Below, piece after piece: positions 47,330-48,960 of a stretch of DNA of 64,000 nt. Source of the stretch: a virus. Lineage: Duplodnaviria; Heunggongvirae; Uroviricota; Caudoviricetes. How positions within the stretch are numbered: position 1 is the stretch's first letter; each line of letters opens with the position of its first letter. The notes beneath the pieces were generated by a model. That model was not told the DNA's origin, ran no database searches, and worked only from the letters and a program-made list of their open reading frames with translations. The translations under genes were made by a program, and so were the position numbers. Location of the stretch: the IMG/VR virus record IMGVR_UViG_2923350032_000001, positions 1 to 64,000 of that record; one strand, 5' to 3'.

Positions 47330-48960
47330 GAATCGTGATTTTTAGAGCGATTTAGCTGTTAGCCGCGACAGGCGCGGCGGTAAGCATGGCTGGGCCTAGT
47401 CCTCCCAGACAAACCACCGAGTTGCCAGGTTGACCATGCGCCTAAGTGGCAACTCCGAAGTGCGTAACGAGCTTCCATCCAGTTTGCCCATCTTCGGGTG
47501 GGCGTTTTTTTCAGGGGTTTCGTCATGGTTAGCGACTTTGCGGCGGTTTAGCGAAAAACGCCGTAAACCCTCGCCTAATGCGGGCGGGTATATAAGGCGA
47601 AAAGCCAACAGGGCTTTAAAAAAATCATTACGGTGTTAGCATAAAAAGCCTGTATCAATGAGCAGTGACTATGTTAAGAGCAACAAAAGTACGTATATAC
47701 CCCACTCCTGAACAGGCAGAGTACCTCAATGCCCAGTTCGGTGCAGTGCGCTTTGCGTACAACAAAGCTCTTCACATCAAAAAACATGCTTACCAGAGAC
47801 ACGGAGTAAATTTAAGTCCGCGTAACGATCTGAAACCGTTGTTGTCTGTGGCCAAAAAGTCCCGCAGGTATGCCTGGCTCAAAGAGTTTGATTCAATGGC
47901 ATTGCAACAGGCGGTAATTAATCTTGATGTGGCATTTTCCAACTTTTTTAATCCGAAGCGGAAAGCGCGGTTCCCGACGTTTAAACGTAAACACGGAAAA
48001 CAATCGAGCTATCACTGTGTCGGAGTTAAGGTGCTGGATAATGCCATCAAAATTCCTAAACTGTCCCCAATAGAAGCACGCCTTCATCGTGAACTTCATG
48101 GAAAGCTGAAAAGCATCACTATCACCCGTTCAGCAACGGGGAAATACTATGCTTCAATTCTCTGTGATGATGGTCTGGAAGCTCCGGTAAAACCCACGTT
48201 GATATCAACAGTTACTGGCCTGGATATGGGGCTTGAGCACTACGCCATCAGGTCTGACGGAGCAAAAATTGCGAATCCCCGCCATCTCATCAATGCCAGC
48301 CGTAATCTGCGACGCAAACAAAAAGCGTTATCCCGCAAGCAAAAGGGAAGCGCGAATCGTAAAAAGGCCAGAATCCGTCTGGCAGCGTTACACGAACGGG
48401 TGGCTAATGCCCGTGCTGATTTTCAACACAAGCTCTCTCGTACAATTGTTGACGAAAACCAAGCGGTAATTGTCGAGACGCTGAAAACAGCCAACATGAT
48501 GAAAAACCACAATCTGGCAAGAGTGATAGGTGATGCAGGCTGGCATAGCTTCATCACAAGGCTGGAGTACAAGGCGGCGGAAAAAGGCGCTCACCTGGTA
48601 AAACTCGACCAGTGGTTTGCCAGTTCGAAAACGTGTCATTGTTGTGGTTACAAGATGTCGGAAATGCCACTTCATAAACGCATCTGGCGATGCTCTGAAT
48701 GTGGTATTGAACATGACCGCGACATCAATGCGGCGCTCAACATCCGGCAAAAAGGAATACTGGAACTGAAGGCGGCGGGACTCGTCGTCTCCGCCCATGG
48801 AGGCCAGCGTAAATCCGTCGCACAGACGGTTGTGGCCTGAGAAGTGGGAAGCCTCGCCCGACAGGGCGGGGAGCAGTCACAAACTGACCATTAAAGTAAA
48901 TGCAAACGATGATCTGATGATGGTTGCGGCCTAAGAAGCCTGACACCACGGGGTTGTCCC
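47330..48960 (+). mobile_element. IS200/IS605-family tnpB-only element (IS609/insQ-like); boundaries approximate
   Basis: TnpB gene flanked by subterminal GC-rich hairpins with GACAG loops (about 47355-47375 and 48850-48870); no tnpA. Confidence 0.45.
47665..48840 (+). CDS. tnpB: TnpB (RuvC-like RNA-guided nuclease of IS200/IS605 elements)
   Basis: 391 aa; N-terminus MTMLRATKVRIYPTPEQAEYLNAQFGAVRF typical of E. coli InsQ-type TnpB; C-terminal Zn finger CHCCG...CSECG. Confidence 0.85.
   Translation: MTMLRATKVRIYPTPEQAEYLNAQFGAVRFAYNKALHIKKHAYQRHGVNLSPRNDLKPLLSVAKKSRRYAWLKEFDSMALQQAVINLDVAFSNFFNPKRKARFPTFKRKHGKQSSYHCVGVKVLDNAIKIPKLSPIEARLHRELHGKLKSITITRSATGKYYASILCDDGLEAPVKPTLISTVTGLDMGLEHYAIRSDGAKIANPRHLINASRNLRRKQKALSRKQKGSANRKKARIRLAALHERVANARADFQHKLSRTIVDENQAVIVETLKTANMMKNHNLARVIGDAGWHSFITRLEYKAAEKGAHLVKLDQWFASSKTCHCCGYKMSEMPLHKRIWRCSECGIEHDRDINAALNIRQKGILELKAAGLVVSAHGGQRKSVAQTVVA

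Follow-up and report, generated by a model that had tools for sequence, protein, structure and literature searches.

What kind of element carries the tnpB gene found past dmt in IMG/VR virus record IMGVR_UViG_2923350032_000001, where does it begin and end, and is a guide RNA to be expected from it? The whole stretch analysed (positions 1 to 64,000 of that record, 64 kb; the window) was described in an earlier note as holding, at 47330-48960, a solo TnpB element flanked by ends of the IS200/IS605 type. The core of that reading, namely a tnpA-less IS200/IS605 element with a catalytically intact TnpB and a guide RNA expected from its 3' end, was supported; its coordinates were wrong. The element is likely a non-autonomous insertion sequence (IS) of ISEc46 type, the TnpB of which, together with its guide RNA (ωRNA), would act as an RNA-guided nuclease dependent on a target-adjacent motif (TAM) and aimed at the DNA that flanks its own insertion on the right.

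The context of 47330-48960 is a P1-type phage-plasmid; 2.9 kb around the element are 100% identical to E. coli plasmid NZ_CP142045.1, and the flanks of the element are ~94% identical to the region of phage P1 downstream of dmt. On comparison by BLAST with IS-free P1 (AF234172), the adjacent P1 bases 3247 and 3248 (L001) corresponded to window positions 47551 and 48881, and the ends of the element are therefore 47552 and 48880, not 47330 and 48960 as first proposed. The empty site of IS-free P1 reads ...GGTTTAG/AAACTGACC... (the stroke marks the point of insertion).

47552-48880, + strand: whole inserted element, 1329 bp, without terminal inverted repeats and without target duplication (comparison with the P1 empty site).
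47547-47551, + strand: target pentanucleotide TTTAG, directly 5' of the left end; predicted TnpA cleavage/target site and predicted TnpB TAM.

The same first and last bases were found in six more full-length copies in unrelated plasmid and phage contexts, the outside flanks diverging at once; a seventh copy (L008) has only the right end in common with the window element. The insertion is of the IS200/IS605 kind, 3' of a fixed tetra- or pentanucleotide and without target-site duplication, and NTTAG or NTCAG was present at every related insertion. Subterminal imperfect palindromes are found at both ends (48852-48871 and 47569-47589), with the same stem sequence in the relatives; the left one is weakened here. 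The point of insertion is the leader of the P1 ban operon, with which the element is co-oriented; the earlier note had put it immediately downstream of dmt, but 251 bp lie between, with the Pban promoters, C1 operators, a hairpin and a dicF-like region. Of the two GC-rich GACAG hairpins named there as flanking the gene, the right one (48852-48871) is the conserved end of the family; the left one (GCCGCGACAGGCGCGGC, 47362-47378) is identical in IS-free P1, where it is part of the leader of the ban operon; it is 174 bp away from the element and was rejected as an IS end.

A complete TnpB of 391 aa with RuvC motifs and a C-terminal zinc finger had been reported, and this was confirmed by the open reading frame, Pfam, NCBIfam and an alignment to ISDra2 TnpB.

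47665-48840, + strand: tnpB coding sequence, uninterrupted; 391 aa from GTG 47665, 389 aa from ATG 47671.
48223-48225, 48475-48477 and 48721-48723, + strand: codons of the RuvC residues D187, E271 and D353, respectively (ISDra2 alignment).

The start at ATG 47671 is the one used by the NCBI Prokaryotic Genome Annotation Pipeline (PGAP) in most relatives, and the gene is already annotated by PGAP as RNA-guided endonuclease TnpB in identical plasmids. The Pfam domains HTH_OrfB_IS605, OrfB_IS605 and Cas12f1-like_TNB were found; the NCBIfam model guided_TnpB scored 351 bits (cut-off 100). The protein was aligned over its full length to ISDra2 TnpB (structures 8H1J/8EXA; E ~3e-78): D187, E271 and D353 correspond to ISDra2 D191, E278 and D361, so that the RuvC residues, the loss of which was to refute the earlier note, are all present, and the CxxC...CxxC zinc finger is formed by C324, C327, C343 and C346. 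The ratio of nonsynonymous to synonymous substitution rates (dN/dS) of the window tnpB against its relatives was 0.05-0.18, with solo copies among the comparisons; the exception was the near-identical pair with L003 (0.59, from only few changes). Since the low ratios hold for solo copies also, TnpB is maintained even without tnpA in cis; it is intact and under purifying selection.

No tnpA was found in the 64-kb window by tblastn with the TnpA of the family, and on this point the tnpA-less state claimed for the element stood. In ~35 of 80 related loci the same kind of search did find a Y1 transposase gene (tnpA), which lies right upstream of tnpB and is read from the other strand; two loci (L087 and L082) with a co-oriented tnpA are of different architecture. 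In one copy from an E. coli chromosome (L091) the annotation reads 'ISEc46 family transposase' plus TnpB; the TnpA of this copy is recognised by the NCBIfam IS200 equivalog model, the TnpB shares 86% identity with the window protein, and the left end is that of the window bar a few substitutions. The window element has no Y1 (HUH) TnpA of its own, as an autonomous member of IS200/IS605 does, and it is thus a non-autonomous derivative, tnpA being absent in the window and present in the relatives and in chromosomal ISEc46. The two-gene relatives are ~1765 bp long and the solo copies 1329-1336 bp, one common deletion of ~435 bp (the tnpA segment) being found in all of the latter; a degenerate relic of the tnpA terminator hairpin is left at ~47604-47614, and the deletion junction follows it. 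The element is accordingly a tnpA internal-deletion derivative of a two-gene, divergently arranged lineage of ISEc46 type (IS200/IS605). A primary tnpB-only origin of the IS1341 type was rejected, since close relatives keep tnpA and the solo copies share the deletion junction.

Relatives of the element are common: matches were found in 799 of 5426 complete E. coli genomes, the plasmid copies being 90-100% and the chromosomal ones ~79% identical. Two copies are conventionally given the same IS name at protein identity of at least 95% or DNA identity of ~90%; against annotated ISEc46 copies (not the ISfinder reference itself) the values were 86% for TnpB and 79-80% for DNA, and judged by these identities the window element is a relative of ISEc46, not an isoform. 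In the literature ISEc46 was met in resistance-genomics inventories only, and a functional study of its TnpB was not found.

Two further observations were made on plasmid copies. L008 (NZ_CP146684.1, 1174-2760) is a 94%-identical copy that keeps a truncated divergent tnpA and lacks 13 nt in helix A of the ωRNA (see below), a loss by which tnpB also is frameshifted; it is an example of a decaying two-gene copy on E. coli plasmids. The right-end hairpin with its tail occurs as exact lone 38-bp copies on several E. coli plasmids (L092, NZ_CP068592.1, 701-738; H86-H90); as miniature elements these were rejected, the one inspected (L092) being a relic truncated by an IS3-family insertion near a hok/gef gene.

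The ends themselves carry the signals by which the target appears to be chosen.

47552-47664, + strand: left end (alignment to solo and two-gene relatives).
47563-47568, + strand: guide-like hexamer GTAAAC, in the left end.
47569-47576 / 47582-47589, + strand: left subterminal hairpin, CCTCGCCT / GGGCGGGT.
48852-48871, + strand: right-end hairpin, CCTCGCCC-GACA-GGGCGGGG; 8-bp stem with a T·G pair, loop GACA; DNA fold -8.4 kcal/mol.
48872-48876, + strand: right-end linker AGCAG.
48877-48880, + strand: terminal cleavage tetranucleotide TCAC.

The right end, ...CCTCGCC..GGCGGGGAGCAGTCAC, is common to 57 loci from many Gammaproteobacteria and (nearly) invariant; the flanks diverge right after ...AGTCAC. 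The left end is of two sorts. CGTAAACCC-hairpin-GGATATAAGG is preceded by NTTAG in 37 of 37 readable loci (among L009-L084), and likewise in L091 and in the window; CGAGAACCC-hairpin-GGAGGAAAGG is preceded by NTCAG in 7 of 7 loci (L003-L007, L002, L088; six on E. coli plasmids or phages and one independent, in Vreelandella). The pairing of motif and target, GAGAAC...GGAGGAAAGG with TCAG and GTAAAC...GGATATAAGG with TTAG, was thus without exception in 44/44 loci; a looser left-end pattern applied to 22 unclassified loci recovered only one. Target choice, then, covaries with the left-end guide motif. In the IS608 model it is the bases at the foot of the left-end hairpin, and not the protein, that recognise the cleavage/target site, and a change of these bases re-programs the target (PMC3201880, PMC5934647); the pairing fits this model because the variants at the hairpin foot go with the target. 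The left hairpin of the window differs from that of ISEc46 by two stem substitutions (47576 C>T and 47589 G>T), present in the window and in every copy at the P1 site; its DNA stability is -8.3 kcal/mol (z -1.0) vs -13.7 and -13.1 kcal/mol in relatives (z -3.4 and -3.7). The weakened left hairpin and the lack of tnpA suggest poor mobility, and with its two substitutions the window copy is probably poorly mobile or immobile.

A guide RNA had been placed by the earlier note at about 48700-48960. The last 200 nt of 42 non-redundant relatives were aligned and folded with RNAalifold, and the following features were obtained.

48770-48880, + strand: predicted ωRNA scaffold, 111 nt; covers the right end and the final 71 nt of tnpB with its stop codon.
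48770-48776 / 48784-48790, + strand: helix A, -111..-91 from the right end.
48794-48798 / 48844-48848, + strand: helix B, -87..-33.
48802-48808 / 48832-48837, + strand: helix C, -79..-44.
48815-48819 / 48825-48829, + strand: helix D, -66..-52.
48852-48859 / 48864-48871, + strand: helix E, -29..-10.
48872-48880, + strand: scaffold tail, AGCAGUCAC.
48881-48900, + strand: predicted guide segment, AAACTGACCATTAAAG(TAAA); P1 backbone, outside the transposon; position by analogy with ISDra2 (PMC8612924, PMC10097598).

The consensus has 34 pairs, 17 of them with compensatory double changes (3-8 in controls with the partners slid by 1-3 columns); 98.5% of the cells are paired (34-53% in the slid controls), and the covariation score was matched by 0 of 500 shuffles. 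The window sequence alone folds into the same five helices. The structure at the 3' end of the element, over the end of tnpB and the right end, is hence conserved family-wide as RNA, as the check on structure proposed for this region had asked; the coding sequence holds four of the five helices in part or in whole, and these are therefore not explained by recognition of DNA by TnpA. Of the segment first proposed for the guide RNA, only 48770-48880 as scaffold with ~16-20 nt of flank fits; from 48900 onward it is P1 backbone. The predicted target stretch 3' of the TAM, matching the guide, is AAACTGACCATTAAAGTAAA. The guide 16-mer AAACTGACCATTAAAG is unique in the window and adjoins TTTAG in IS-free P1, and the right flanks differ at every insertion site of the family.

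A different use of these parts is conceivable: TnpB might have been exapted as a nuclease-dead regulator of the TldR kind, or the 3' structure might act in mRNA stability or merely supply the DNA hairpin for TnpA, and not be a guide RNA. TnpB-derived transcription factors do exist, and helix E doubles as the DNA hairpin of the right end. The RuvC triad is intact, however, tnpB sits between bona fide transposon ends, helices A-D lie in the coding region, where they are dispensable for recognition by TnpA and still show compensatory changes, and the layout of the helices matches the experimentally solved ωRNA of ISDra2; this account is regarded as highly improbable.

In the likely reading, that of a TnpB-ωRNA nuclease carried by a non-autonomous ISEc46-type element, the following course is envisaged. 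The divergent tnpA (~435 bp) was lost by internal deletion, and the element was inserted 3' of TTTAG in the ban leader. A transcript of the 3' end of tnpB and the right end would be processed to the ωRNA, as judged by homology to ISDra2 and Geobacillus IS elements; the ~111-nt scaffold would bind TnpB, and the 3' guide would be the adjacent P1 sequence AAACTGACCATTAAAG.... The complex would cut DNA with the guide sequence beside the TAM, whether in an empty site resealed upon excision or in any genome of P1 type that lacks the IS, and recombination from the occupied copy would then restore or spread the element. Complexes of this type are known to cleave the empty site once it has been resealed after excision by TnpA, so that the element is restored by recombination (Karvelis 2021, PMC8612924; Meers 2023). 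Movement would need TnpA in trans, e.g., from full-length ISEc46 in E. coli chromosomes.

The history of the window copy bears on how far this course may still operate. Against the copy at the same P1 site in pBS15R-A_1 (L089), the 1.5-kb flanks are 99.7-99.8% identical and the IS only 94.5%; all 74 differences fall within IS positions 113-1218, the first 112 nt and the last 111 nt being identical. Against the copy of an IncF plasmid (L003, TCAG class), only the left end is divergent (74% identity), the rest being 98-100% identical. By these comparisons the window copy is a recombinant of a TTAG-specifying left end and an interior from TCAG-class plasmid copies, the simplest reading being that a copy of the TCAG class converted the interior of the resident one.

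TnpB residue 78, which aligns with the TAM contact F77 of ISDra2, is I or L in L089 and in every TTAG-class protein with a residue at this position (37 proteins); M is found in the window protein and in six of the seven TCAG-class ones (Vreelandella included); the exception (L002) has TCAG with I. No TnpB column splits TTAG from TCAG copies perfectly, position 78 coming closest with this one exception, and the association of residue 78 with target class in the alignment is suggestive, not strict. The other equivalents of TAM contacts (P52, K57, S77, Q81, H117, C118) are the same in both classes. It may further be supposed that target specificity was naturally switched from TTAG to TCAG within one IS lineage, at least twice independently, through mutations of the left-end guide and an I/L-to-M change in TnpB, and that the window copy is a recombinant in which the two are uncoupled; put together in this way, the proposal is judged unlikely. 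If residue 78 does tune TAM reading, the window nuclease would no longer match its own empty site; if TTTAG sites are still cut, the copy would act as a nuclease borne by P1 and directed against the conserved block of the ban leader in the ~97% of P1-type plasmids without the insertion.

In PLSDB the empty P1 junction was found in 569 plasmids and the occupied one in 17 (17/~586 P1-type). The closest of the occupied plasmids (H21 and H22) are 99.8-100% identical over 2.9 kb and the remainder ~97%; by this measure H21 and H22 presumably carry the recombinant interior of the window, and the other occupied plasmids probably carry an interior of L089 type, L089 alone having been inspected directly.

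These data can also be read as those of an inert fossil in the P1 backbone, immobile and unused, that looks intact by virtue of a recent gene conversion of its interior from an active plasmid copy. Such an account, which is partly compatible with the nuclease reading, agrees with the lack of tnpA in the window, the left hairpin destabilised by the two stem substitutions common to all copies at the site, the interior as a conversion tract, M78 at a TAM-contact equivalent vs a TTAG flank, and the low occupancy with one flank haplotype, which suggests vertical inheritance and not active spread. It has to be set against an intact reading frame, intact catalytic residues and the integrity of every ωRNA helix; the L089 allele is also uninterrupted (dN/dS 0.18 vs the window copy), and TnpB activity requires neither TnpA nor a working left end. 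On balance the fossil is considered somewhat unlikely.

In a further account TnpB and ωRNA are a weapon or homing drive of the phage-plasmid, by which co-resident or superinfecting IS-free P1-type genomes are cut at the ban leader and the rival is excluded or converted. The predicted TAM and guide target are unchanged in P1 and have one mismatch in phage D6, in a block almost invariant even between these two; the empty junction is widespread among the PLSDB plasmids, and expression could rise on induction, since the element points the same way as the C1-repressed ban promoters. The guide of any IS200/IS605 insertion, however, matches its own empty site, which makes the match no evidence of co-option; the low frequency and the single flank haplotype argue against an efficient drive, and the TAM may be mismatched. 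A role of this kind is therefore thought quite improbable.

Several points weigh also against the likely reading itself, the ISEc46-type element with an active TnpB-ωRNA. With M78 beside a TTAG flank, the nuclease may read its own empty site inefficiently; with a weak left hairpin and no tnpA, excision may never occur, and the retention function would then be idle. No Rfam family for the scaffold was found in 46800-49800 at E<=1, where only sub-threshold tmRNA models appeared. A candidate pseudoknot, GUC 48876-48878 (-5..-3) with GAC 48779-48781 (-102..-100), is kept in 36 of the 42 relatives and mismatched in 5 (one subgroup); the pairing is invariant, thus without covariation, and is uninformative by that measure. 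A promoter consensus scan of 47250-49300 gave nothing, and is uninformative in that the documented Pban promoters were missed as well; a terminator-like hairpin (47485-47504) followed by a T-run stands between Pban and the element. Finally, the ends and processing of the ωRNA and the activity of TnpB are argued by analogy with studied systems.

The leader into which the element is inserted contains the following features.

47289-47320: Pban promoters and C1 operators, P1 ban-operon leader.
47415-47521: dicF-like region, P1 ban-operon leader.

The IS splits a block (window 47482-47551 plus 48881-48980; P1, L001, ~3190-3380; D6, L090, ~800-1000) that has hardly changed between P1 and the distant phage D6, though the P1 and D6 flanks diverge. 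The order in the block is: terminator; mini-ORF MVSDFAAV with AGGGG-N7-ATG (47525-47551; its TAG stop is the IS target); an in-frame tag-like stretch; hairpin 48948-48963. The block probably represents a conserved element of the ban operon, either an RNA or part of the leader. The tag-like stretch (UAAAUGCAAACGAUGAUCUGAUGAUGGUUGCGGCCUAA, 48897-48935; P1, L001, ~3264-3302) resembles the tag of a transfer-messenger RNA (tmRNA) and reads ANDDLMMVAA-stop; its first 4 nt are overlapped by the predicted ωRNA guide (to 48900). A real tmRNA gene was not supported: with ARAGORN the window was free of tRNA and tmRNA genes and P1 gave only its three known tRNAs, and the Rfam model tmRNA_permuted gave 32 bits in the window and 24 bits in intact P1 (gathering score 47), sub-threshold scores driven by the tag-like stretch in the P1 flank. 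No literature linking P1 to a tmRNA-like sequence was found.

Further features of the neighbourhood were recorded. The gene dmt (44259-47300) carries an intein of 341 aa (44490-45512; Hint and LAGLIDADG) that begins with CFTAGH, ends with VVHN and is followed by C; it sits exactly at the catalytic Cys of the GGTPCQAFS motif in the C5-methyltransferase half. With the intein left out, identity to P1 Dmt is 89-96%, and ~80 aa of the linker present in P1 are missing. Similarity to P1 is lost near 49215, and the window lacks the tRNA-Asn and tRNA-Thr genes found next in P1 and D6. Their place is taken by an integrase fragment (~49417-49529; annotated in the identical region of pBS15R-A_1), an open reading frame (49685-50620) with both pPIWI-associated nuclease domains, a pPIWI partner being not visible, and a glycosyltransferase fragment (50917-51348).

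The element is biologically ordinary, a member of a known and common insertion-sequence family of E. coli, and the current understanding of TnpB biology is unchanged by it. The main value lies in annotation: the true ends of a TnpB element common on E. coli plasmids and phage-plasmids are fixed, and the 'solo TnpB' is shown to derive from ISEc46 by deletion of tnpA. For a family without a detecting Rfam model, an ωRNA model supported by covariation and a predicted TAM (NTTAG/NTCAG) are given, and both are directly usable for testing an endogenous E. coli TnpB. Of modest interest is the apparent TTAG/TCAG re-targeting with its left-end signature, together with the recombinant uncoupling in the window copy; a natural switch that goes with a left-end change would offer a small, clean system for the coupling of TnpA target and TnpB TAM.

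Among known systems, ISEc46 (E. coli chromosome, phage RCS47) is the nearest: the left end CGAAAAACGCCGTAAACCCTCGCC...GGATATAAGG and the right end ...CCTCGCCCGACAGGGCGGGGAGCAGTCAC are shared, as is, with the full-length chromosomal copy, the TTAG target, the TnpB proteins being 86% identical. The window element differs in that the divergent tnpA of 141 aa is missing (~435 bp deleted), the DNA is only ~79-80% identical to the chromosomal and RCS47 copies, the left hairpin has the two destabilising substitutions, and the interior comes from the TCAG-targeting plasmid sublineage.

In structure the element agrees with ISDra2/IS608-type elements but for its missing TnpA. With ISDra2 (Deinococcus radiodurans) it has in common the RuvC and zinc-finger residues, a predicted TAM that equals the transposon target site, and a predicted ωRNA scaffold of similar length (~111-116 nt), in which stems 1-4 have their equivalents and a candidate pseudoknot is placed alike. 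Lit. data for the ISDra2 ωRNA: stem 1, -116..-86; stem 2, -84..-81 with -35..-32; nested stem 3; stem 4; pseudoknot -5..-3 with -105..-103 (PMC10097598). Window Q81 corresponds to ISDra2 Q80, which reads A at TAM -2, a base common to both TAMs. The TAM is predicted as TTTAG/TTCAG in the window family vs TTGAT in ISDra2, and the residues at the TAM-contact positions are P52/K57/S77/M78/H117/C118 vs Y52/S56/K76/F77/T123/N124; tnpA is divergent from tnpB in the full-length relatives of the window element, and the activity of the window TnpB is a prediction from its sequence.

IS608 (Helicobacter pylori) is similar in its subterminal imperfect hairpins, in insertion 3' of a fixed tetranucleotide without duplication, and in a target set by bases beside the left-end hairpin (PMC3201880, PMC5934647); it differs in the sequences of hairpins and target and in its co-oriented genes. 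Like elements of the IS1341 type and IS609/insQ (E. coli K-12), the window element has tnpB only between ends of IS200/IS605 type, and its relatives are named 'InsQ/TnpB family' by PGAP; unlike in these, the tnpB-only state is secondary in the window element, as judged from its own relatives.

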